NCBI GenBank assembly: GCA_963707945.1
Contig: CAVPRM010000002.1
Span: 1,212,340-1,276,339, forward strand
Length of the DNA: 64,000 nt
Origin: an uncultured delta proteobacterium
Lineage (GTDB): Bacteria > Myxococcota_A > UBA9160 > SZUA-336
Reading direction: 5' to 3'
Positions 15,271-59,200 of the stretch are shown here, in pieces. The number at the start of each line of letters is the position of its first letter. Within the stretch, counting starts at the first letter, position 1. The notes beneath the pieces are model-generated. The model was given only the letters and a program-made list of their open reading frames with translations. It was not told the DNA's origin and ran no database searches. Both the position numbers and the translations under genes were made by a program.

Positions 15271-15879
15271 ATGGTCGCCCCCGCCCTTTCGACTCGCCGC
15301 GCGCGCAAGAAGGAGCGCACCCGCCAGGAGATCTTCTCCGCGGCGATGGAGCTGTTCGCGGCGCGCGGCTTCGAGGCGGTGACGATCGAGGCGATCTGCG
15401 CCGCGGCCGACGTCGCGCGCGGGACTTTCTTCCTCCACTTCCCGAGCAAGGCCGCGCTGCTCTGGGAGTGGAATCGCCAGGTCGCCGACGAGTTCCGCGC
15501 CGGGCTCGTCGAGCCGCGCGGCAGCGCGGTCGACGAGCTGCGCGACCTGGTCGAGCACATCTCGCGCAAGCTCGAGGCGCAGGCCGACGTCATGGCCGGG
15601 CTGCTGCGCGAGTTCTTCGCGACACCGCCCGCGCCCGCCGCCGCGCGCGAGGCCGATCGCGATCTGTCGGCGCTGGTCGAGGAGCTGGTGCGGCGCGGCC
15701 AGAAGCGCGGCGAGCTGCGCCGCAGCGTCGACGCGCGGCTGGCCGTCGCGATGCTGCTCTCCACCGCCGCCGCGATTCTCGCGGGCAACGTCTGGAAGCC
15801 GGGCGAGATCGCGCCGGCCAAGGTGCGGGCCCAGTTCTACGAAGTCGTCTTTCACGGACTCACGGGAGGTCGAAAGTGA
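15271..15879 (+). CDS. TetR/AcrR family transcriptional regulator
   Basis: RTRQEIFSAAMELFAARGFEAVTIEAICAAADVARGTFFLHFPSKAALL is a TetR_N HTH. The stop overlaps the next start (GTGA). Confidence 0.85.
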   Translation: MVAPALSTRRARKKERTRQEIFSAAMELFAARGFEAVTIEAICAAADVARGTFFLHFPSKAALLWEWNRQVADEFRAGLVEPRGSAVDELRDLVEHISRKLEAQADVMAGLLREFFATPPAPAAAREADRDLSALVEELVRRGQKRGELRRSVDARLAVAMLLSTAAAILAGNVWKPGEIAPAKVRAQFYEVVFHGLTGGRK

Positions 15880-17054
15880 CTCAGTCGCGTCTTCGCTTCG
15901 GAATCTTCATGGCGCCGTTCCACCCCGAGAACGAGAACCCCTCGCTCGCGCTGGCGCGCGACATGGAGCTCGTCGAGTGGCTCGACGAGCTCGGCTACGA
16001 CGAGGCGTGGATCGGCGAGCACCACTCGGCCGGCTACGAGATCATCGGCTCGCCCGAGGTGTTCATCGCCGGCGCCGCCGAGCGCACCCGCCGGATCAAG
16101 CTCGGCACCGGCGTCTCGTCCCTGCCCTACCACCACCCGTTCATGCTGGCCGACCGGATCCGCCAGCTCGACCTGCAGACGCGCGGCCGCGTGATGTTCG
16201 GCGTCGGGCCCGGGTGCGCTGCCCACCGACGCGTTCATGATGGGCATCGATCCCGCCGACGCAGCGCGACCGCATGCTCGAGTCGATCCGCGCGCTGATC
16301 CCGCTGCTGCGCGGCGAGACGGTCACGATGAAGACCGACTGGTTCGAGCTGCGCGAGGCGCACCTGCAGCTGCGCCCGTTCAGCGAGGAAGGCGTCGAGA
16401 TCGCGGTCGCGAACCAGGTCTCGCCCGCGGGCGCGCGCGCGGCGGGCGAGTTCGGGCTGTCGCTGCTCTCGATCGGCGCCACCACCACCGGCGGCTTCAA
16501 CGCGCTCGCCAACACCTGGTCGATCTGCGAGGAGCGCGCGAAGGAGTTCGGCCAGTCGGTCTCGCGACGCGGCTGGCGCCTGGTCGCGCCCATGCACATC
16601 GCCGAGACCCGCGAGAAGGCGCGCGAGGACGTGAAGTTCGGCCTGCTCAACTGGGCGCGGTACTTCCGGGAGATCTCGCCTTTGCCGCTGGTCGAAGCGG
16701 GCGTGCCGATCGACCAGGCGATCGACAAGCTGATCGAGATCGGCATGGCCGTGATCGGCACCCCCGACGACGCGGTCGCGCAGCTGCAGCGGCTCGAGCG
16801 CCAGTCGGGCGGCTACGGCTGCTTCCTGCAGCTCGCGCACGAGTGGGCCGACCGCGCGCGCCACGCACGAGAGCTACGAGCTGATCGCGCGCCACGTGAT
16901 GCCGCGCTTCCAGGGCAGCAACGACCTTCGCGAGAAGAGTCTCGGCTACGCCATCGAGAACCGCGGCCGGATCATGGCCGAGGCGGGCGGCGCGGTCATG
17001 AAGGAGATCGCGAAGCACGCCGCCGAGCAGGGCCAGAAGACCAAAGCGCCGTGA
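15876..17054 (+). pseudogene. LLM-class (luciferase-like) flavin-dependent oxidoreductase, 3 frameshifts as sequenced
   Basis: The segments are VTQSRLRFGIFMAPFHP...WIGEHHSAGYEI...MFGVGPG, then ALPTDAFMMGIDPAD, then QRDRMLESIRALIPLL...QLAHEWAD, then HESYELIARHVMPRFQG...KAP*. The shifts fall at an extra t at 16215, an extra g at 16261, and about 16852-16863. Confidence 0.8.
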
Positions 17055-24901: not shown

Positions 24902-24961
24902 CGGTGGCGACCCAAGGGCATCGGGCTACCATGCGCGCAGGGGATTGTGGGAGGTTACCTC

Positions 24962-25435
24962 GTGACGACCATTCGAGCGTTCGCAGTTTGCGGCGTCGTG
25001 TCTCTCTTCATGCTCGCCGCGTCGGGCGCGCGCGCTCAGTCGGACGGCATTCCGACGATCACCGGCGCGTGGACCGGCAAGATCAGCTCGGTCTACTGGG
25101 ACCAGACGGCTGACGGGTCGCCGCACCCCAAGCACAAGTTCAAGTCGAAGGTCGACGTCTCGATCGATCAGAAGGGCGGCTCGATCCTGCTGACCTTCAG
25201 CTTCAACGACGACCTGCCCGTGGACGCTGGCGGCGGCACTTCTTCGCTCGTCCTCACGGGCAATGTCGGCAACTACCACCTGAGCGGGGTGGCCGAGGCC
25301 GCTCCGGGAGTCCCGGCCGTCGCGGTCTCCGGCACCTCGAACAAGAAGGGCACCAAGATCACACTCAAGGGTGTCGCCGCTTCCGACGACTTCACTCAAG
25401 AGATCAAGATCAAGATCAAACGAATCGCGCCGTAG
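24962..25435 (+). CDS. secreted hypothetical protein
   Basis: GTG 24962 lies 6 nt after GGGAGG. Signal peptide VTTIRAFAVCGVVSLFMLAASGARAQ, then a beta-rich small protein ending EIKIKIKRIAP. Confidence 0.6.
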   Translation: MTTIRAFAVCGVVSLFMLAASGARAQSDGIPTITGAWTGKISSVYWDQTADGSPHPKHKFKSKVDVSIDQKGGSILLTFSFNDDLPVDAGGGTSSLVLTGNVGNYHLSGVAEAAPGVPAVAVSGTSNKKGTKITLKGVAASDDFTQEIKIKIKRIAP

Positions 25436-26708: not shown

Positions 26709-26759
26709 AGTCTGGCACGGTTGACGGCGCGGGAGGCGGCCAGTACACCCGCCCGCATC

Positions 26760-27906
26760 ATGTCGCAGCCCTCGCAGCGCGCCCGCTCGATCGAGCCGTT
26801 CCTCGCGATGGAGGTCCTGGAGCGCGCGCAGGAGCTCGAGCGCGCCGGCGCCGACGTGATCCACCTCGAGATCGGGGAGCCCGAGTTCCCGGCGCCCGCG
26901 GCGGCGGTCGAAGCGGCCCGGCGGGCGCTCGCGGACGAGCCGTCCCGCTACACCGACAGCCGCGGGCTGCTCGAGCTCCGCGAGGCGATCGCGCGCGACC
27001 ACGCGCGCCGCAGCGGTGTCGCCGTGGACCCCGCGCGCGTGCTGGTCGCGGCGGGCACCTCGCCGGCGCTCCTGCTCGCGTTCACCTACCTGCTCGACCC
27101 GGGCGACGAGGTCGTGCTCGGCACGCCGCACTACGCCTGCTACCCGAACCTGATCCGCGCGGCGGGCGGGGTCCCGGTGTTCGTCGAGACGCGCGCGGCG
27201 GATGGCTACCCGCTGCGCGCCGCCGACGTGCGCCGCATGCTCACGCCGCGCACGCGCGCGATCGTGGTCGCCTCGCCCGCAAACCCGACCGGGGCCGTGC
27301 AAGCGCGCGCCGATCTCGAGGCGCTGGCGGCGCTCGGCCCGCCGCTCGTCTCGGACGAGATCTACGACGGCCTGGTCTACGACGGCGCACGGGTCACCTC
27401 GGCGCTCGAGCTCGGCCGCGACGCGTTCGTGCTCGACGGCTTCTCGAAGCGCTACGCGATGACCGGCTTCCGGCTCGGCTACCTGATCGCGCCGGCGCGG
27501 GCGTCGCGCGCGCTGCAGAGCCTGGCGCAGAACCTGTTCATCTCGGTCGCGAGCTTCGTGCAGCGCGCCGGGATCGCGGCGCTCGAGCACGGCGCCGCCA
27601 CGACCGCGGCGATGCGCGACGCCTACGCGCTCCGCCGCGGCGTGCTGATGGACGGCTTGAAGCGGCTGGGCTTCGAGGTCCCCGTCGCGCCGCGCGGCGC
27701 GTTCTACGTGTTCGCCGACGCGCGGCGCATCGACGCCGACTCGCGCGCGGCTGTCCTCGCGAGTGCTCGAGGAGGCGCACGTCGCGGTCACTCCCGGCGT
27801 CGACTTCGGCGCCGCGGGCGAGGGCTACCTGCGCTTCTCGTGCACCGCGGCGGAGGCCGAGATCCACGAGGCGCTGGCGCGGATCGCGCGCGTGATCGGT
27901 CGCTAG
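26760..27906 (+). pseudogene. class I/II pyridoxal-phosphate aminotransferase, frameshift near 27750
   Basis: IHLEIGEPEFP, ASPANPTG and the SKRYAMTGFRLGY (PLP Lys) motifs. After ...ADARRIDADSRA the conserved tail LSSRVLEEAHVAVTPGVDFGAAGEGYLRFS...VIGR* is in the next frame (extra g at about 27750). Confidence 0.8.
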
Positions 27907-28676
27907 CCAGCGACCAGCACGCCGTCGGCGACGAGCTCGGCCGCGATCTCGGCCACGTCGGCCTCGGACTCGCCGCAAACTCGCGCCAGCTCGGCGAGCG
28001 TCCGCGGCCTGCCGGCCGCGTCGAGAAGCCGCGCCAGGTCGGGCGCAAGCCGCTCGGCCTGCACGTCGCGCAGCCGGAACGGCTTGGCCTCGCGCTCGGC
28101 GATCACGAGCACCGTCTCCTCGCCGGCCGAGTCGAGCTCGAACGCGGGCAGAGGCGCGGCGCGATCGAGCGCCTCGCGCACGCGTACGGCGAGCTCGAGC
28201 GCACCGGCCGGCAGCGCGACGAGCCAGGCCCACGGCGCGAGGGCCAGCTCGCCGCGCCCCGGTGCGCTGGCCGCCCGCAGCTCCCGGCGCGCGCGCGCGA
28301 GCGCGCGCTCGAGCGCCGCCAGCGCGCGCGCCGCGGAGGTCCGCGACGCGCTGCTGCGCTCCGCGTAGCGGCCGAAGGCGAGCGGCAGGCTCGCGTCGAA
28401 CTGCACCGCCTCGTGGAACTCGGCCGAGCTCGTGAAGCCCTCGGCCACCACGCCGGCCGCGCGCGAGAGCGCGAACTCCTCGGAGACGTTGCGCAGGAAC
28501 TGGCCGAGCCGGCGCAGGTCGCGATCCGCGGAGAGCGCGCCCGGATCCGCGCCGCGCAGGAGGGCGAGCTCCGCCGCGCCCAGCTGCGCGTCGGTCTCGC
28601 CCGCGCGCAGCCGCGCCGCGAAGGCGGGATCGAGCTGCATGCGGAACAGGGCTCTCTGCACCGCCCGGTGGTTCAC
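27903..28676 (-). CDS. partner protein of the DUF692/MNIO-like enzyme, with RRE/winged-helix-like C-terminus
   Basis: GTG 28676 overlaps the upstream stop (GTGA). The protein is 257 aa. The C-terminus RTLAELARVCGESEADVAEIAAELVADGVLVAG resembles PqqD/RRE-type peptide-recognition wHTH. It sits where DUF2063/MbnC/TglI-type partners sit next to DUF692 genes. Confidence 0.6.
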   Translation of the reverse strand: MNHRAVQRALFRMQLDPAFAARLRAGETDAQLGAAELALLRGADPGALSADRDLRRLGQFLRNVSEEFALSRAAGVVAEGFTSSAEFHEAVQFDASLPLAFGRYAERSSASRTSAARALAALERALARARRELRAASAPGRGELALAPWAWLVALPAGALELAVRVREALDRAAPLPAFELDSAGEETVLVIAEREAKPFRLRDVQAERLAPDLARLLDAAGRPRTLAELARVCGESEADVAEIAAELVADGVLVAG

Positions 28677-29544
28677 GGGAACGCGCGCCGCAGGCGCTCG
28701 AAGGTCGGGATCACCTCGCCCGCCGCGTTGCGCTCGCACTCGAACACGAGCGCGCGCAGGTTCGGCGCGCGCGGCAGCACCGCCTCGAAGATCTCCCAGG
28801 TGTCGCGGAGCGGTGTCGGCGCGTGGTCGTCGTCGACGAAGGTCCGGCCGGCGTGCGCGAACTCGCTCGCGCCGGCGACGTGGATCTCCACGACGCGCTC
28901 GAGCGGGTAGCCGTCGAGCCCGTCGAGCGGCGCGTGTCCCGTCGCGCGCTGGTAGATCGCCAGGTGCGCGACGTCGAGCAGGAGCCCCGAGTCCGCCTGC
29001 TCGGCTACGCGGCGCGAAGTAGTCGAGCAGGTGCAGATCGCCCAGGTAGACGTGCGCGGGCGGATTCTCGGGCAGCACCTCGAAGCGGGTGGACTCGCGC
29101 AGCCGGCGCACGTTGTCGGCCATCTCGCGCGCGGAGTCCGCGCACAGGATCGGCGGCGCGAGCAGCCCGTGGCCGCGGTCGCGCCGGCCCAGGTGCCACA
29201 GTCCTGCGTCGCCGCACAGCCAGGCCGCGCCGAGCTCGCGCGCCAGCGCGGCCACCGCGCCGACCCACTCGGGCGAGAGGCTCTCGCGCTCCTCGAGGTT
29301 GCCGTCGAGCAGGTGATAGGTCGTCGGCCAGGCCGCCGCGCACCACGCGCGTACGGTGGCGTCCACGCCGCGCTCGAGGTCGACGCCGATCTCGAGAAAC
29401 TCGCACAGCTCCGGGCGCGCACGGCGCAGCGCCAGCGGATCGAGCCCGGACGCGGACGCGCCGAACTCGGTCGAGATGCCCGAGCCCGAGCCGCGGCAGC
29501 GCCGCCGCCCGAGCGGCGAACGGTGCGCTCGGGTCGTACCCCAT
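28673..29544 (-). pseudogene. divergent DUF692/MNIO-like (xylose-isomerase-like TIM barrel) enzyme, 2 frameshifts as sequenced
   Basis: The segments are MGYDPSAPFAARAAALPRLGLG, then ISTEFGAS...CEFLEIGVDLE...YHLLDGNL...LPENPPAHVY..., then RVAEQADSGLLLDVAHL...VVEIHVAGAS...VDDDHAPT...LVFECERN...*. The block order resembles DUF692 (lEN, LLDvnN, eiHlAG, DtH, iEwD). The shifts are near 29478 and 29011. Confidence 0.65.
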
Positions 29545-29549
29545 CGCAG

Positions 29550-30749
29550 CTAGGCTGGTTCGAGGTCCATGGGGATGCTGGTGAAGCCGCGGAAGACGAA
29601 GCTCTTGTGCAGCGGCAGCGGCTCGGTGTTCGCCAGCTGGAAGGAGCGGGTTCGCTCGAGCAGGACGCGCAGCGCGATCTGCGCTTCGAGCCGCGCGAGG
29701 TTCGAGCCCAGGCAGTAGTGCGTGCCGAAGCCGAACGAGAGGTGGCGGCTCTCCTTGCGGTCGGGGTCGAAGCGATCGGGATCCCTGAACATCGCGTCGT
29801 CGCGGTTCGCCGACGCGAGCCAGCAGATCGCGAACTCGCCCTTGGGCACCACGGTGCCCGCGAGCTCGACGTCGCGGGTCGCCACGCGCGGGTCGAGCTG
29901 CACCGGCGAGCTGAAGCGCAGGACCTCTTCGACCGCGGCCGGCACGAGCGCCGGATCCTTCCGCACGCGCTCGAGCGTCTCGGGCTGCTCGAGCAGGGTC
30001 AGCACGACGTTCCCGATCAGGGTCGTCGTCGTCTCGTTTCCCGCGACGAGCAGCAGGATCAGCATCTGCACGAGCTCGTCGAAGCTGAGCTTCGAGCCCT
30101 CGACCTCGGCCGCGACCAGGCCCGAGAGGAGGTCCTCGCGCGGCGAACGCCGGCGCTCGTCGGCGAGCCTCGCGAAGTACGCGCTGAGCTCTTCCACCAG
30201 CTTCTGGTTGCGCTCGAACGTCTCGCGGTCGGGCGGCGCGAAGATTCCCACACCCAGCGTCTCGACGAGTTTGTCCGACCAGTACTTGAAGCGCTCGCTG
30301 TCCTCGGTCGGCACGCCGATGATCTCGGCGATGATGGTGACCGGCAGCGGATACGTCAGCGCCCGAACCAGGTCGGTCTTCCGCTGCGTCAGCGCCTTGT
30401 CGAGCAGCTGCTGCGCGATCTCGACCATGCGCGGCTCGAGCCGGCGGATGATCTTGGGCGTGAACGCCTGGTTCACCAGACCGCGCAGCCGGTCGTGCGC
30501 GGGCGGATCGAGCCCGATCATGCTCGGCACCCGCTCCGTCATCTCGGGGAAGCCGGGCGGCGGCGGAAACTGGCTCGACCAGGTGCGCCAGTCGCGCAGC
30601 ACCTCGGTCACGTCGTCGTAGTTGAAGATCGAGGTGACCGGCAGGCCAGGATGCCGGAAGGCGCGGAGCTTGCGCCCCTGCGCGTAGAACGGATAGGGGT
30701 TGCGGCGGGTCGCGTCGTCGAACGGATTGAAGGAGAAGTCGGCCGACAT
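29550..30749 (-). CDS. cytochrome P450
   Basis: 399 aa with the I-helix LLLVAGNETT, the ExxR motif EEVLRF, and the heme loop FGFGTHYCLGSNLA. The stop is 5 nt from the next start. Confidence 0.92.
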   Translation of the reverse strand: MSADFSFNPFDDATRRNPYPFYAQGRKLRAFRHPGLPVTSIFNYDDVTEVLRDWRTWSSQFPPPPGFPEMTERVPSMIGLDPPAHDRLRGLVNQAFTPKIIRRLEPRMVEIAQQLLDKALTQRKTDLVRALTYPLPVTIIAEIIGVPTEDSERFKYWSDKLVETLGVGIFAPPDRETFERNQKLVEELSAYFARLADERRRSPREDLLSGLVAAEVEGSKLSFDELVQMLILLLVAGNETTTTLIGNVVLTLLEQPETLERVRKDPALVPAAVEEVLRFSSPVQLDPRVATRDVELAGTVVPKGEFAICWLASANRDDAMFRDPDRFDPDRKESRHLSFGFGTHYCLGSNLARLEAQIALRVLLERTRSFQLANTEPLPLHKSFVFRGFTSIPMDLEPA

Positions 30750-30758
30750 GGCCGCATT

Positions 30759-31970
30759 CTAGCGCGGGTCCGATCGGGACTCGTAGCCGGCTGCGGCGAG
30801 CTTCGCGACGATCTCGCGCAGGTGGTCGGCGCCGCGCGTCTCGAGCACGAACGAGACTTCGGCCTCGGACGAGGGCGCGCGCGCGAACACCTTCTCGTGG
30901 ATCACCTGGACGACGTTGGCGCCGCTCTCCGCGATCGCTGCGGAGATGACCGCGAGCTGACCCGGCACGTCGCGCACGCGCACGAGCAGGCGGGCCAGCC
31001 GCGAGGTGCGCGCGAGCCCGCGCTCGATCACGTGCGAGAGCACCTGCATGTCGATGTTCCCGCCGCTGATCACCACCCCGACGCGCTTTCGCCAGAACGT
31101 GCGCGGGTTGGCGAGCACCGCCGCCAGCGCGGCCGCTCCCGCACCCTCGGCGACGGTCTTCTCGACCTCGAGCAACAGGAGGATCGCCGCCTCGAGCGGG
31201 TCCTCCTCGACGAGCAGGATCTCCTTCACGTGCTTGCGCACGATCGGCAGCGTGAGCTGGCCCGGCGCCTTCACCGCGATCCCGCCCGCGAGGGTCGCGT
31301 CGCCGCAGCGGATCGGCTGGCCCGCGAGCGCCTGCTTCATGGCCGGATAGCGCGCGGACTGGACGCCGAAGACCTCGAGGTCCGGGCGCAGCGCGTGCGC
31401 GGCGATCGCGCAGCCGGAGATCAAGCCGCCGCCGCCGATCGGCGCCACCAGCACCTCGAGGTCGGGCACGGCCTCGAGCATCTCGAGCGCCACCGTGCCC
31501 TGCCCCGCGATCACCTTCGGGTCGTCGTACGGATGTACCCAGACGAGGTTCCGCTCGCGCGCGAGCTGGGCCGCCCGCGCGGCCGCGTCCTCGAGGGTCT
31601 CGCCCTCGATCAGCACCTCGGCGCCGAACGCGCGGGTCTGCTCGACCTTCACGGTGGGCGTGTGGCGGGGCATGACCACGACGGCCCGGACGCCGAGCCG
31701 CTGCGCGTGGTAGGCCACGCCCTGCGCGTGATTGCCGGCCGACATGGCGATCACGCCGGCGGCGCGCTCGGCGCTCGTCAGCGAGAGCAGCTTGAAGAGC
31801 GCCCCGCGCTCCTTGAACGCGGCGGTGAACTGCAGGTTCTCGAACTTCAGGAACAGCTCGCAGCCCGCGATCTCGGACAAGGTGCGCGAGCGCAGGAAGG
31901 GCGTGCGCTCGACGGCGCCGCGAATCGCGTCGGCGGCGGCGCGGACGTCGGCGAGCTCGATCTCACCCAT
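30759..31970 (-). CDS. ilvA: threonine ammonia-lyase (threonine dehydratase) with C-terminal ACT-like domain
   Basis: LKFENLQFTAAFKERGA (PLP Lys), SAGNHAQGVA and GGGGLISG motifs, plus an ACT-like tail RLLVRVRDVPGQLAVISAAI. The ATG lies inside shadow ORF 30759-32909. Confidence 0.88.
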   Translation of the reverse strand: MGEIELADVRAAADAIRGAVERTPFLRSRTLSEIAGCELFLKFENLQFTAAFKERGALFKLLSLTSAERAAGVIAMSAGNHAQGVAYHAQRLGVRAVVVMPRHTPTVKVEQTRAFGAEVLIEGETLEDAAARAAQLARERNLVWVHPYDDPKVIAGQGTVALEMLEAVPDLEVLVAPIGGGGLISGCAIAAHALRPDLEVFGVQSARYPAMKQALAGQPIRCGDATLAGGIAVKAPGQLTLPIVRKHVKEILLVEEDPLEAAILLLLEVEKTVAEGAGAAALAAVLANPRTFWRKRVGVVISGGNIDMQVLSHVIERGLARTSRLARLLVRVRDVPGQLAVISAAIAESGANVVQVIHEKVFARAPSSEAEVSFVLETRGADHLREIVAKLAAAGYESRSDPR

Positions 31971-35730: not shown

Positions 35731-37071
35731 ATGTCCGTGCCCGCCGCCACCGCCGCAGCCGGCGCGACGCAGAGGGGGGAACTGCAGCTGTTAGACTGCC
35801 GCCGCATGACCAACGCTCCGCGCGCCGTCGTCGCGAACTCGGGCGGCGAGATCACCGACGTCGCCGGGCTGCGTGCGGCTGCGCGCGCCGGGAACGACGT
35901 GTTCCCGCTCGACCCGGCCGACCTGGTGCCGCTGCCCGACGCGAGCCGGCTCCTGTTCCTGCCCGGCCGCACGCCGCTCGCCTACGAGAGAAGCGGCGCG
36001 GCCGAACCCGAGCCGCTCGACGGCGCGCTCGCGGTGGCGGCCTTCCTGCCGCCGGGCTGGACCGGTCTCTCGCTCTCCGCCTTCCGGCGCGAGGCGAACG
36101 CGCCGCTCCTCCCGCTCTACGCCTACACCGCGGTGTGCTGGCACCGCGGGCGCTTCTGCGTCGCAGCGCGCCGGGTCGACGACGACTCGAAGCACGACCC
36201 CGAGTCGTTCTCGCTGGCCGAGATCCAGGCGAGGGTGGCCGAGCTGCGCGCGCGCCTGCCGAACAACCGTCTGATCGCCCACCACGGCGAGCGCTGCGCG
36301 CTGGAGTGGGGCTGCCCGAACGCGCAGAACCTGTTCCTGGGCCGCTTCGAGGCGCCGATCGCGCTCGCGCGCTCGTGCAATGCGGCCTGCCTGGCCTGCA
36401 TCTCCGAGCAGCCGCCCGATGCGGTGCCCTCGGCGCAGGAGCGGCTCGCCTTCAAGCCCTCGCTCGACGAGATCCTCGAGCTCGCAGTACCGCACCTCGA
36501 GCGCGCGCCGCGCGCGATGATCAGCTTCGGCCAGGGCTGCGAGGGCGAGCCGCTGCTCGAGGCGGAGCGCATCGCCGAGGCGATCCGCGCGATCCGCAAG
36601 CGGACCTCGCGCGGGTCGCTCCATCTGAACACGAACGGCAGCCGCCCGGACGCGCTGCGCGCCCTCGCCGCAGCCGGGCTCGACAGCGTTCGCGTCTCGC
36701 TGAACAGCGCGCGCGAAGAGACTTACACCCCGTACTACCGGCCGCGAACGTATCGGTTTCGCGAGGTGGTCGAGAGTCTCTCCGCCGCGCGCGAGCTGGG
36801 TCTCTACACGTCCGTGAATCTCCTCTCATTCCCCGGGGTCACAGACTGCACGGACGAGGCGGACGCACTGATTGGACTCGCGCGAAGTACGGGCCTGCGC
36901 ATGATCCAGTGGCGCAACCTCAACGTGGACCCGGACTGGTACATGGGTCTGTTCGCGAACCTGCCCCGCGCGCCGCGCCTGGGCATGGGCGCGCTGCTCG
37001 AGCGCGTTCACGCCGAGCTCCCCGAGCTGCGCTTCGGCTACTTCAACCCGCCCGCCGAGGACTGGAGATAG
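35731..37071 (+). CDS. radical SAM protein with unassigned ~200-aa N-terminal domain
   Basis: CxxxCxxC cluster motif (SCNAACLAC), a GGE-like FGQGCEGEPLL, and LNTNGSRPD, SLNSAREETY. The start is ATG 35731 (alternative 35806). The stop lies 1 nt before the next start. Confidence 0.8.
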   Translation: MSVPAATAAAGATQRGELQLLDCRRMTNAPRAVVANSGGEITDVAGLRAAARAGNDVFPLDPADLVPLPDASRLLFLPGRTPLAYERSGAAEPEPLDGALAVAAFLPPGWTGLSLSAFRREANAPLLPLYAYTAVCWHRGRFCVAARRVDDDSKHDPESFSLAEIQARVAELRARLPNNRLIAHHGERCALEWGCPNAQNLFLGRFEAPIALARSCNAACLACISEQPPDAVPSAQERLAFKPSLDEILELAVPHLERAPRAMISFGQGCEGEPLLEAERIAEAIRAIRKRTSRGSLHLNTNGSRPDALRALAAAGLDSVRVSLNSAREETYTPYYRPRTYRFREVVESLSAARELGLYTSVNLLSFPGVTDCTDEADALIGLARSTGLRMIQWRNLNVDPDWYMGLFANLPRAPRLGMGALLERVHAELPELRFGYFNPPAEDWR

Positions 37072-37072
37072 C

Positions 37073-38509
37073 ATGCGCGCCGCGCGCCTCGTGACGCTCG
37101 TCTGTGTCGCCCTGCTCGCAACCGCCGCGCGCGCCCAGGAGGCGGCCACCGCGCACGTGCGCTCGAACCCCGAGGAGCGCAGCGAGGTCGGGCTCACGAT
37201 CTACTCGGGCGGCTTCGGCCTGGTGCGCGAGACGCGCACCCTGGCCCTCGCCAAGGGCCGGACCGAGCTCGAGTTCGCGGGAGTGGCCGAGACGATCCAG
37301 CCCGAGACGGTGCTGATCGATCCGCTCGGCGGCGCGAACCTCCGCGTGCTGGAGCAGAACTACCGCTACGACCTGCTCTCGCCCGAGAAGCTGCTCGAGA
37401 AGTACATCGGGAAGTCGGTGAAGGTGCTGCGCTGGAGCGAGTCGAAGGGCCGCGACGAGGAGCGCGACGCGGTCGTGCTCTCGGCCGGCCCGACGCCGAT
37501 CCTGCGCGTGGGCGACGAGATCACCTGGGCGTTCCCTGGCCGCATCTCGTTCCCCGAGCTGCCCAAGAACCTGATCGCGAAGCCGAGCCTGGTCTGGCTG
37601 GTCGAGGCCGGCGCCGAGAAGCCGAAGGTCGAGGTCGAGTATCTCGCCAACCAGCTGGGCTGGAAGGCCGACTACGTGCTGGCCGTCGACGACAAGGACC
37701 AGAGCGGCGATCTCACCGGCTGGGTGACCCTCGACAACAGGAGCGGGTCGGCATACGCGAACGCGAAGCTGCAGCTCGTGGCCGGCGACGTGCACCGGGT
37801 GACCCCGCAGCAGTTCGTCGACGACCTGCGCATGTCGCGCAAGGTGACGATCGCGGAGGCCGCCGCGCCCCAGTTCCGCGAGGAGGGGCTGTTCGAGTAC
37901 CACCTGTACACGCTCGAGCGCCCGACGACCCTGCTCGAGAACGAGACGAAGCAGATCGCGCTGCTCGAGGCGAGCGGCGTGCCGCTGAAGAAGCGGCTCG
38001 TCTACCGCGGCGAGCGCCAGTGGTTCCGCTACGCGCTCGGCGGCGAGCCCATCACGCAGAACAAGGTCGCCGTCAGCCTCGAGTTCGAGAACAAGGCGGG
38101 CGCGAAGCTGGGCATGCCGCTGCCGAAGGGGATCGTGCGCGTCTACAAGCGCGACTCGTCGGGCGGCCGCCAGTTCCTGGGCGAGGACCAGATCGACCAC
38201 ACGCCGCGCGACGAGAAGGTGCGCATCCGCGTCGGCGACGCCTTCGACGTGGTCGGCGAGCGGAAGCAGATGGACTACAAGGTGATCAACTCCTGCCGCA
38301 GCGAGAGCGCCTGGCAGATCGACCTGCGCAACCACAAGGACAGCGCGGTCGAGGTGGACGTGATCGAGCCCGCGAGCGGCGACTGGGAGATCGTCTCGTC
38401 GAGCCTGAAGGCCGTGAAGGAAGACGCGAACACCTTCAGCTTCCACGTGCCGGTGCCGGCGGGCGGGAGCACCCGGGTCGAATACCGGGTGCGCGTGCGC
38501 TGGTGCTAG
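37073..38509 (+). CDS. DUF4139 (MuiA-like) secreted protein
   Basis: Signal peptide MRAARLVTLVCVALLATAARAQE, plus YRYDLLSPEKLLEKYIGK, GWKADYVL, GWVTLDNRSGSAYANAKLQLVAGDV, the typical DUF4139 pattern. Confidence 0.8.
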   Translation: MRAARLVTLVCVALLATAARAQEAATAHVRSNPEERSEVGLTIYSGGFGLVRETRTLALAKGRTELEFAGVAETIQPETVLIDPLGGANLRVLEQNYRYDLLSPEKLLEKYIGKSVKVLRWSESKGRDEERDAVVLSAGPTPILRVGDEITWAFPGRISFPELPKNLIAKPSLVWLVEAGAEKPKVEVEYLANQLGWKADYVLAVDDKDQSGDLTGWVTLDNRSGSAYANAKLQLVAGDVHRVTPQQFVDDLRMSRKVTIAEAAAPQFREEGLFEYHLYTLERPTTLLENETKQIALLEASGVPLKKRLVYRGERQWFRYALGGEPITQNKVAVSLEFENKAGAKLGMPLPKGIVRVYKRDSSGGRQFLGEDQIDHTPRDEKVRIRVGDAFDVVGERKQMDYKVINSCRSESAWQIDLRNHKDSAVEVDVIEPASGDWEIVSSSLKAVKEDANTFSFHVPVPAGGSTRVEYRVRVRWC

Positions 38510-58637: not shown

Positions 58638-58910
58638 TCAGGCGCGCCCTTCGGTCGAGACGCGCTGGTGCACGAGCTCGACGATCTCGCCGATCGTCCG
58701 CATCTGCTCGATGTCGTCGTCGGAGAACGCGAGCCCGGTATCTTCCTCGATCCAGCCCGCCAGCGCGACGCCGTCGAGGCTGTCGAAATCGAGGTCGGTC
58801 CGGAGATCGGTCTGGGCCGAGATCTCCGCTGCATCGACGTCGAACTCGCGCACCAGGATCGCGAGCACTCGCGCCTGGATGTCCTGCTTGGAGCTCTGTT
58901 GGAGCGACAC
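58638..58910 (-). CDS. acyl carrier protein
   Basis: 90 aa. The DLDFDSLDGVAL motif carries the phosphopantetheine Ser. GTG start after AGGAGA. Confidence 0.85.
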   Translation of the reverse strand: MSLQQSSKQDIQARVLAILVREFDVDAAEISAQTDLRTDLDFDSLDGVALAGWIEEDTGLAFSDDDIEQMRTIGEIVELVHQRVSTEGRA

Positions 58911-58930
58911 GCTCTTCTCCTGCGAGCCGC

Positions 58931-59200
58931 CTAGTGAGATAGCTGTGAATTCACGAACTCGGCGAGGCTGCGCACCGAGGCGAAGATGCGCCGGTTCTCG
59001 TCGGGATCATCCTCGATCTTGACACCGAAGCGCTCCTCGAGCGCCATCGCGAGCTCGAGCGCGTCGATCGAGTCGAGCCCGAGCCCCTCGACGAAGAGCG
59101 GCGCCTCGCTCTCGATCTCGTCGGGCGCGATGTCCTCCAGCACGAGCGCCTCCACGATCAGGCGCTTCAGCTCCGACTCCAGCCCGTTAATCCGCGGCAT
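58931..59200 (-). CDS. acyl carrier protein
   Basis: 89 aa with the GLGLDSIDALEL motif. The start overlaps the upstream acyltransferase stop by 14 nt. Confidence 0.88.
   Translation of the reverse strand: MPRINGLESELKRLIVEALVLEDIAPDEIESEAPLFVEGLGLDSIDALELAMALEERFGVKIEDDPDENRRIFASVRSLAEFVNSQLSH

Follow-up and report, generated by a model that had tools for sequence, protein, structure and literature searches.

A multinuclear iron oxidase and its partner protein form a conserved module without an adjacent precursor gene in Myxococcota and other bacterial phyla

Introduction

When the genes for a threonine dehydratase, a cytochrome P450 and a multinuclear non-haem iron oxidase (MNIO) are packed one after another on the same strand, do they form a pathway, or have they come to lie side by side by descent? 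Such packing in one genome can suggest a pathway for which comparative genomics gives no support. The question is raised by a 64,000-nt stretch of contig CAVPRM010000002.1 from an uncultured delta proteobacterium (here called the window; G+C content 72%), in which these three genes are followed by a fourth, encoding a putative partner of the MNIO. A preliminary description of the window had read the four genes as one operon with no visible precursor peptide, and had found the association of an MNIO with a P450 and a threonine dehydratase unfamiliar. A further question concerns the MNIO gene itself, whose reading frame is broken at two sites.

To our knowledge, the substrates of every characterised MNIO are peptides or proteins, and we know of none that was studied other than via a precursor gene beside it. 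Comparison of the window with 80 related loci identifies the MNIO and its partner, rather than the set of four genes, as the conserved element, and no locus offers a precursor gene next to them. The reading that we favour, and hold to be fairly probable, is that the two proteins form a conserved, self-contained heterodimer, similar to TglHI, and modify a peptide or protein whose gene lies elsewhere; the functional unit would thus comprise two genes and not four.

The TIM-barrel protein is an MNIO

The two genes of the pair are the following. Coordinates, here and throughout, are positions in the window, and gene positions were derived from third-position GC content and six-frame translation.

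28673..29544, minus strand: MNIO (DUF692/PF05114), 289 aa after two frame corrections
27903..28676, minus strand: partner protein, 257 aa, with a predicted DUF2063-like N-terminal helical domain and a predicted RRE-like winged-helix C-terminal domain

The corrected MNIO matches PF05114 (MbnB_TglH_ChrH) with E=1.4e-17 and 64.3 bits against a cut-off of 25, and this is its sole Pfam match at E<=0.1. It aligns end to end with intact homologues of the same length, 289 aa, at up to 94% identity (best match: P0001). A profile built from 30 homologues retrieved exclusively DUF692, MbnB and TglH chains from the PDB. The AlphaFold (AF2) model of the protein has a predicted local distance difference test (pLDDT) score of 92.6, and its Foldseek ranks 1 to 9 are occupied by structures of TglH, MbnB and 3bww, a DUF692 protein of H. 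somnus (E from 7.5e-15 to 5.5e-9, template modelling (TM) scores of about 0.7), whereas UVDE, xylose-isomerase-like proteins and endonuclease IV appear only from E=6e-7 and with lower TM scores. The preliminary description had proposed the DUF692/MNIO assignment and had named an ordinary sugar-phosphate isomerase or a member of the AP-endonuclease-2 family as the alternative. Since MNIO structures outrank the isomerases and endonuclease IV, that alternative falls, with Pfam, PDB-profile and fold searches in agreement, and the TIM-barrel protein is a true MNIO.

Conservation within the family leads to the same assignment. Residues H77, D112, H117, E159, D190, H193, H221, D237/D238, H240, E268 and E270 are invariant across the 30 homologues, and the invariant motif positions line up with the corresponding motifs of 3bww; the iron-binding subset among them is presumably the one known from MbnB and TglH. 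The blocks LPENPP, LLLDVAHL, VEIHVAG, DDDHAPT and FECERN, named in the preliminary description, can all be found in the protein and occupy columns that are invariant in the alignment of the family. A loop reading WLCGDAGLWHxGxRxRGHG is likewise invariant and is specific to this subfamily; model confidence is lower in this region. The protein lies below the cut-off of every NCBIfam equivalog for a characterised MNIO, ApyH being the top-scoring model (67.7 bits against 400), with BufB at 62.3 against 310 and HvfB at 33.3 against 360. By analogy with characterised members, the MNIO would be the catalytic subunit of the pair, an iron-containing enzyme carrying out O2-dependent oxidation of a peptide.

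The partner has the fold of TglI

Searches of Pfam, NCBIfam and PDB sequences returned no match for the 257-aa partner, and its sole sub-threshold hit, with searches extended to E<=0.1, was HTH_36 (E=0.024, residues 214-251). DUF2063 (PF09836), MbnC and PqqD were not found in it by sequence, and no PqqD/RRE sequence model matched it at E<=0.1. The fold is more informative. The AF2 model (pLDDT 94.7) has TglI as its top Foldseek match (8hi7_A, E=1.2e-4, prob 1.0, TM 0.63/0.61) and also matches NGO1945, a DUF2063+RRE protein (3dee, E=3.4e-3, prob 1.0, TMt 0.62); the partner is not MbnC-like (7dz9_C, prob 0.10). The earlier suggestion that its C-terminus is a PqqD/RRE winged helix therefore stands as regards the fold, through TglI and NGO1945, and fails as regards a PqqD sequence match; judged by the modelled fold, the domain appears RRE-like.

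A class of partner with these properties, PME-type 2, has been described by Antoine et al. 2025 (PMC12452194). Its members are proteins of about 260 aa, encoded directly after the MNIO gene, that have no Pfam signature, an NGO1945/TglI-like structure and both domains, for instance a 276-aa protein of the myxobacterium Plesiocystis pacifica, and they accompany precursors without a signal peptide. The gene of the present partner overlaps the MNIO stop codon by 4 nt, its product has no PF09836, and its model resembles 3dee and 8hi7. On the strength of the structural match to TglI and NGO1945 we therefore assign it to PME-type 2, which is defined as a broad class and not as a function. Within the pair, it would by analogy be the subunit that recruits the substrate.

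The pair is conserved across phyla, separate or fused

A motif-seeded scan of one genome per species detected a close relative in 201 genomes. The locus comparisons reported here cover the best 80 of these 201 (identity 54-82%), chosen through two motifs of the subfamily and designated by L numbers. By record title, 36 of the 80 are Myxococcota or 'Deltaproteobacteria', 24 are Planctomycetota and 3 Blastocatellia, followed by Entotheonella (2), Eisenbacteria (2) and Thermoanaerobaculia (1); the rest are vaguely labelled or evidently mis-binned. Contigs L039, L053, L054 and L057, for instance, carry the pair under the titles of Klebsiella pneumoniae, Clostridia or Enterobacterales metagenome-assembled genomes (MAGs), and are probably mis-binned or mislabelled. 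Relatives also occur in Nannocystis and Enhygromyxa. Across phyla, the family is conserved at 55-94% identity.

In 75 of 81 loci, an iterated hidden Markov model of the partner found its match immediately downstream of the MNIO. Three of the six loci with no such match end at or near the MNIO (L010, L024 and L035), and the other three have another gene downstream. MNIO and partner are encoded as one in-frame polypeptide in 10 of the 80 loci, and an exhaustive library search provided fused representatives of 520-630 aa (P0197, P0200 and P0202). Only the partner stays with the MNIO and no other neighbour recurs, as detailed in the following section; the conserved unit is therefore a self-contained module of two genes, or of one where they are fused.

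Two minor variants of this arrangement were observed. In L059, L069 and L076 (Bradymonadia and Myxococcales MAGs) the place of the partner after the MNIO is taken by a protein of about 265-280 aa with an N(N/D)REWFK motif, and the stretch searched for a partner, from 4 kb before the MNIO start to 5.5 kb after it, contained none. This protein may resemble DUF2461/TIGR02453. In L025 and L052 only, both from Planctomycetota, MNIO and partner are separated by an opposite-strand gene of about 160-220 aa, whose product has an N-terminus resembling a signal peptide.

No precursor gene or recurrent context accompanies the pair

In the window, there is no intergenic space for a precursor gene beside the pair. 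The small open reading frames (ORFs) found elsewhere in it, which encode an excisionase-like helix-turn-helix protein, two acyl carrier proteins, a lipoprotein and a small secreted protein, were considered as precursor candidates and none is precursor-like. The small secreted protein (24947-25435, plus strand, about 160 aa), located between a DUF420 and a CoA-transferase gene, has a signal-peptide-like N-terminus and no Cys-rich motif.

Across the 80 loci, no recurrent precursor-like ORF was found within ±10 kb, in a test that unique, very short or fast-evolving precursors would evade. It consisted of an all-against-all clustering of ORFs from -4 to +5.5 kb, repeated on self-trained gene calls over ±10 kb. 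MNIO and partner apart, the commonest ORF family was present in at most 9 of the 80 loci and small-ORF families in at most 4 (±10 kb), and the intergenic gaps are often too short for an additional gene. The absence of an adjacent precursor, first remarked in the window, thus holds for the family as a whole.

The genes around the pair are equally diverse. In the other loci, the 124 genes that directly flank the pair gave matches to 109 different Pfam families, each family in 6 genes at most. The 25 commonest of these families include no protease, no exporter and no known type of precursor; nor do they include a LanB-type family, which was likewise not found near the pair in the window or in annotated relatives. 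TIGR04222, a membrane protein that has been proposed as an MNIO substrate, was absent from NCBIfam searches of the flanking genes. Annotated contexts consist of unrelated housekeeping genes, among them those for menaquinone (futalosine) synthesis, SpoU methylase, aminopeptidase P, DUF155, amidohydrolase and, in Nannocystis, GST.

Some less frequent neighbours deserve mention. Those of the L004 type (a 560-aa protein, a sulfotransferase-like protein and a 340-aa protein) have no NCBIfam match, occur in only about 5-6 loci and were set aside. Thiol-related genes lie near the pair in three settings: a DinB_2+FGE gene of EgtB architecture, 24 nt upstream of the pair in a planctomycete (L051:8625-9956, plus strand); short FGE-like genes on the minus strand, convergent and downstream, in the Blastocatellia-type loci L050, L053, L054, L056 and L073; and a GST gene upstream of the pair in Nannocystis (L093:6424-7047, plus strand). 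We rejected the FGE/EgtB-like neighbours as a functional clue, since they represent too few independent events and comprise two distinct architectures. These phyla are very rich in genes of the FGE family, and with so few independent events chance adjacency is therefore plausible.

The dehydratase and the P450 are probably neighbours by descent

Three further genes complete the locus around the pair:

30759..31970, minus strand: threonine ammonia-lyase (IlvA, with a single ACT-type C-terminal domain), 403 aa; PALP, E=8e-75, and ACT
29550..30749, minus strand: cytochrome P450, 399 aa; PF00067, E=1.6e-39, motif FGFGTHYCLG present
26757..27900, plus strand: class I/II aminotransferase, convergent neighbour; PF00155, E=4e-60

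The layout given in the preliminary description is correct in all its parts: four genes on the minus strand, separated by 9 nt, 5 nt and a 4-nt GTGA overlap, with an FAH gene divergent from the dehydratase, starting 27 nt upstream of it, and the convergent aminotransferase gene, whose end reaches the stop codon of the partner, on the other side. Judged by gene spacing, the four genes form a putative operon; a scan of promoters and terminators gave no signal exceeding shuffled controls. The dehydratase exceeds the NCBIfam equivalog cut-offs for threonine ammonia-lyase (NF005600, 592 against 496; TIGR01127, 429.8 against 378.75) and is an ordinary IlvA of the short form, most likely a housekeeping gene. 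The nearest solved structures to the P450 are CYP109 YjiB, CYP267B1 and CYP113A1, which are small-molecule hydroxylases, and ApyO, the model for a P450 acting on peptides that the ribosome makes and that are modified after translation (RiPPs), scores it at 69 bits against a cut-off of 525.

In tblastn searches with the window proteins, the order dehydratase-P450-MNIO-partner was found in only 8 of the 80 loci, those of the closest Myxococcota, with an MNIO at least 74% identical. Outside this clade, L017 has only a distant, convergent P450 and the other loci have no dehydratase or P450 neighbours. Even inside it the set is not constant: in L013 and L015 an MFS_2 transporter gene on the opposite strand comes between dehydratase and P450, and the aminotransferase lies 8-10 kb off in L012 and L013. 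Mining the neighbourhoods of related loci, as the preliminary description had proposed, thus upholds the association of MNIO and partner and gives no support to the four genes as one functional unit. The dehydratase and the P450 would be neighbours by descent and lie outside the conserved module; the P450-MNIO adjacency has a single origin and does not define the family. Within the clade, the order P450-MNIO-partner is maintained in all 8 species genomes and the gap between P450 and MNIO is 0-5 nt in every member, a spacing that makes co-transcription likely. The cassette is probably co-transcribed with at least the P450.

The frame breaks in the MNIO gene are probably artefacts

The need for two frame corrections in the MNIO gene, noted from the start, is confirmed: at each site the window has a single-base insertion relative to five relatives.

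29479, minus strand: frameshift site 1, extra G in a G run, CTCGGGCTCGG[G]CATC, where relatives read CTCGGGCTCGGCATC
29011, minus strand: frameshift site 2, extra C in a CG-rich stretch, TTCGCGC[C]GCGT, where relatives read TTCGCGCGCGT

Such breaks are not confined to this gene. The LLM-class oxidoreductase at 15876-17039 (plus strand) is divided into four frame segments by three single-base frameshifts, as revealed by tblastn with the proteins of a syntenic relative, and the aminotransferase has one near 27747, its tblastn match being split over two frames; six frame breaks thus affect three otherwise conserved genes of the window. A separate assembly, L092 (ENA ERZ25039492 contig_2168, 2.9 Mb), is 96-99% identical in nucleotide sequence to window positions 17800-38373 and has 110 extra and 28 missing bases relative to them, or 138 indels in 20.5 kb. 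Gene prediction on this contig produced heavily fragmented calls and none for the MNIO. Taken with the frame breaks of the window, this makes both look like indel-prone long-read assemblies.

Alternatively, the MNIO could be a genuine pseudogene in this organism, disabled by two +1 insertions, and the cassette a decaying remnant. Both insertions are indeed present in L092 as well as in the window, as expected under decay, whereas the aminotransferase insertion is not shared. The coding sequence itself argues for an intact gene. Between the window and L092, the corrected MNIO frame has accumulated 13 synonymous and 13 non-synonymous changes, a ratio of non-synonymous to synonymous polymorphism (pN/pS) of 0.36, close to that of the P450 (0.31) and of the partner (0.30), and neutrality is rejected (p=0.01), so that the frame appears to evolve under purifying selection still; random errors in L092 could only raise the non-synonymous count. 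The corrected frame has no in-frame stops and no other decay, and it retains all invariant residues. With a pN/pS value like that of the neighbours and neutrality rejected, recurrent context-specific assembly error is therefore favoured, and long-read errors of this kind do recur between samples. As far as the sequence can tell, the frameshifts are probably assembly or sequencing artefacts, the gene being intact in the organism, and we regard a true pseudogene as unlikely.

Relation to known MNIO systems

The closest system in structure is TglH/TglI of the pearlin (3-thiaglutamate) pathway of Pseudomonas syringae (PDB 8hci, 8hi7), which heads the structural matches of each subunit (TglH for the MNIO, E=7.5e-15, TM 0.71; TglI for the partner, E=1.2e-4, TM 0.63). 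Both systems are two-gene pairs of an enzyme and a partner, and neither partner carries the DUF2063 Pfam signature. However, sequence identity between them is just 17-19%, and the present pair is stand-alone, far more conserved across phyla, and without a nearby TglA scaffold peptide or TglB/PEARL peptide-aminoacyl-tRNA ligase. The hallmarks of pearlin loci, a scaffold peptide and a PEARL LanB-like ligase, were found neither in the window neighbourhood nor in annotated relatives.

Other systems resemble the pair in part. BufB/BufC, HvfB/HvfC and the NGO1945-type systems have the same enzyme fold and the same two-domain partner architecture, but their operons encode an adjacent precursor with a signal peptide (DUF2282 or HvfA), often together with DoxX, and none of these is present here. 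MbnB/MbnC of methanobactin biosynthesis share the MNIO fold (TM 0.72-0.79) and presumably the organisation as a heterodimer with a partner, but the partner differs, and MbnA-type precursor and transport genes are absent from the locus. The combination of P450 and MNIO, unfamiliar at first sight, does have a precedent in the aminopyruvatide pathway (ApyH MNIO, ApyI partner and ApyO P450; PMC11117315), a known RiPP cluster of P450, MNIO and partner for which NCBIfam has the models ApyH and ApyO. The likeness goes no further: the present locus has no adjacent precursor or B12-radical-SAM gene, its P450 association is limited to one clade, and its proteins score far under the cut-offs of both models. 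A canonical RiPP cluster contains an adjacent precursor gene, which this pair does not have; for many small MNIO clusters, precursors are reported to be unidentified (PMC12452194). On orphan MNIOs of Myxococcota and Planctomycetota, the literature searched offers only ChrH-type and general landscape statements, and no description of a stand-alone, cross-phylum MNIO family was found in it.

A proposed heterodimer with a substrate encoded in trans

The mechanism that we propose is drawn from these analogies. The MNIO, as a TIM-barrel, multinuclear-iron, O2-dependent oxidase with TglH as its closest structural relative, would work as a heterodimer with its partner, or as a single fused polypeptide in some species. 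The helical DUF2063-like domain of the partner would dock on the MNIO barrel, as in TglHI and MbnBC, while its RRE-like winged-helix domain would hold the peptide and present it to the multi-iron site. There, O2-dependent oxidation would take place at a particular residue of a peptide or protein of ribosomal origin. This substrate would be encoded in trans, elsewhere in the genome, and probably has no signal peptide; as PME-type 2 precursors have none (PMC12452194), it is likely cytoplasmic. The unusually high conservation of the MNIO, including its subfamily-specific loop, suggests that the substrate is conserved too.

Several points weigh against this reading. No substrate was found in the loci compared, and a peptide encoded in trans is suggested by the analogy with other MNIOs and by the RRE-like fold of the partner. 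The 80 loci were selected through two motifs, so distant relatives with cis-encoded precursors may have been missed. The clade-wide spacing of 0-5 nt makes co-transcription of P450 and MNIO likely, and a functional link specific to the clade is therefore possible. As to the integrity of the gene, a recently fixed pseudogene would look the same as an artefact common to two assemblies, and the pN/pS test is based on only 26 substitutions.

Two other functions can be set against that of a peptide-modifying heterodimer. The pair might be unconnected with RiPPs and be a conserved enzyme of metabolism that oxidises a small molecule, such as a thiol of low molecular weight or a short peptide of non-ribosomal origin. 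This would agree with the lack of a nearby precursor in any locus and of protease or exporter enrichment, with the housekeeping-like conservation and contexts of the family, and with the thiol-related neighbours of some lineages (GST in Nannocystis, the EgtB-type gene in L051, FGE-like genes in Blastocatellia). Those neighbours, however, amount to about 2-3 independent events, the partner, like TglI and NGO1945, has kept its RRE-like domain complete, and the characterised MNIOs we are aware of all have peptides or proteins as substrates, which leaves this function quite unlikely. Slightly less likely still is a pathway of four or five genes, in which the dehydratase (with the aminotransferase), the P450, the MNIO and the partner would together build and tailor one peptide product, or make an unusual amino acid for it, for instance 2-aminobutyrate. 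It would explain why the genes are co-oriented and tightly packed and why P450, MNIO and partner stay in order throughout the clade, and P450 and MNIO are indeed known from one RiPP pathway, that of ApyO and ApyH. Yet the arrangement is missing from all 72 other fetched loci, and within the clade it is interrupted by the opposite-strand MFS transporter gene or has the aminotransferase at a distance of 8-10 kb. Moreover, the dehydratase scores as an ordinary IlvA, the P450 is nearest to general hydroxylases of the CYP109/107/267 type and far from ApyO, and the sequence conservation of the MNIO is the same with or without dehydratase and P450 neighbours.

What sets the subfamily apart is the combination of housekeeping surroundings, high identity across phyla and the lack of a precursor gene in any of the 80 loci. 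A bolder interpretation, possible but tentative, is that it represents a functionally new class of MNIO. The class would consist of a strongly conserved and self-contained heterodimer of the TglHI type, in some cases fused, which at least 200 species from the Myxococcota, Planctomycetota, Acidobacteriota and Entotheonella have kept. It would place a housekeeping-type oxidative modification on a cellular protein or peptide that is itself conserved and has its gene elsewhere, or else on a small metabolite with a thiol group, rather than serve natural-product biosynthesis. Should the substrate prove to be a protein or metabolite that is conserved, the reach of MNIO chemistry would go beyond the tailoring of natural products and include the core physiology of the cell in several phyla that have been little studied. 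The pair has carriers in culture (Nannocystis, Enhygromyxa and Pseudenhygromyxa), and the question is therefore open to experiment.

Other features of the window

Two further regions of the window attracted our attention. A radical SAM protein is encoded at 35818-37068 (plus strand), with its SAM domain starting at about residue 180, and is directly followed by a DUF4139 protein at 37070-38509 (plus strand). The two genes are also adjacent in L001 and L006, and could be another maturase-type system, situated a few kb from the MNIO pair. At 58653-59188 (minus strand), two tandem acyl-carrier-protein-like genes with DSLD/DSID motifs lie among co-oriented genes in a region extending from about 52 to 63 kb, which may be a lipid or polyketide-type locus.

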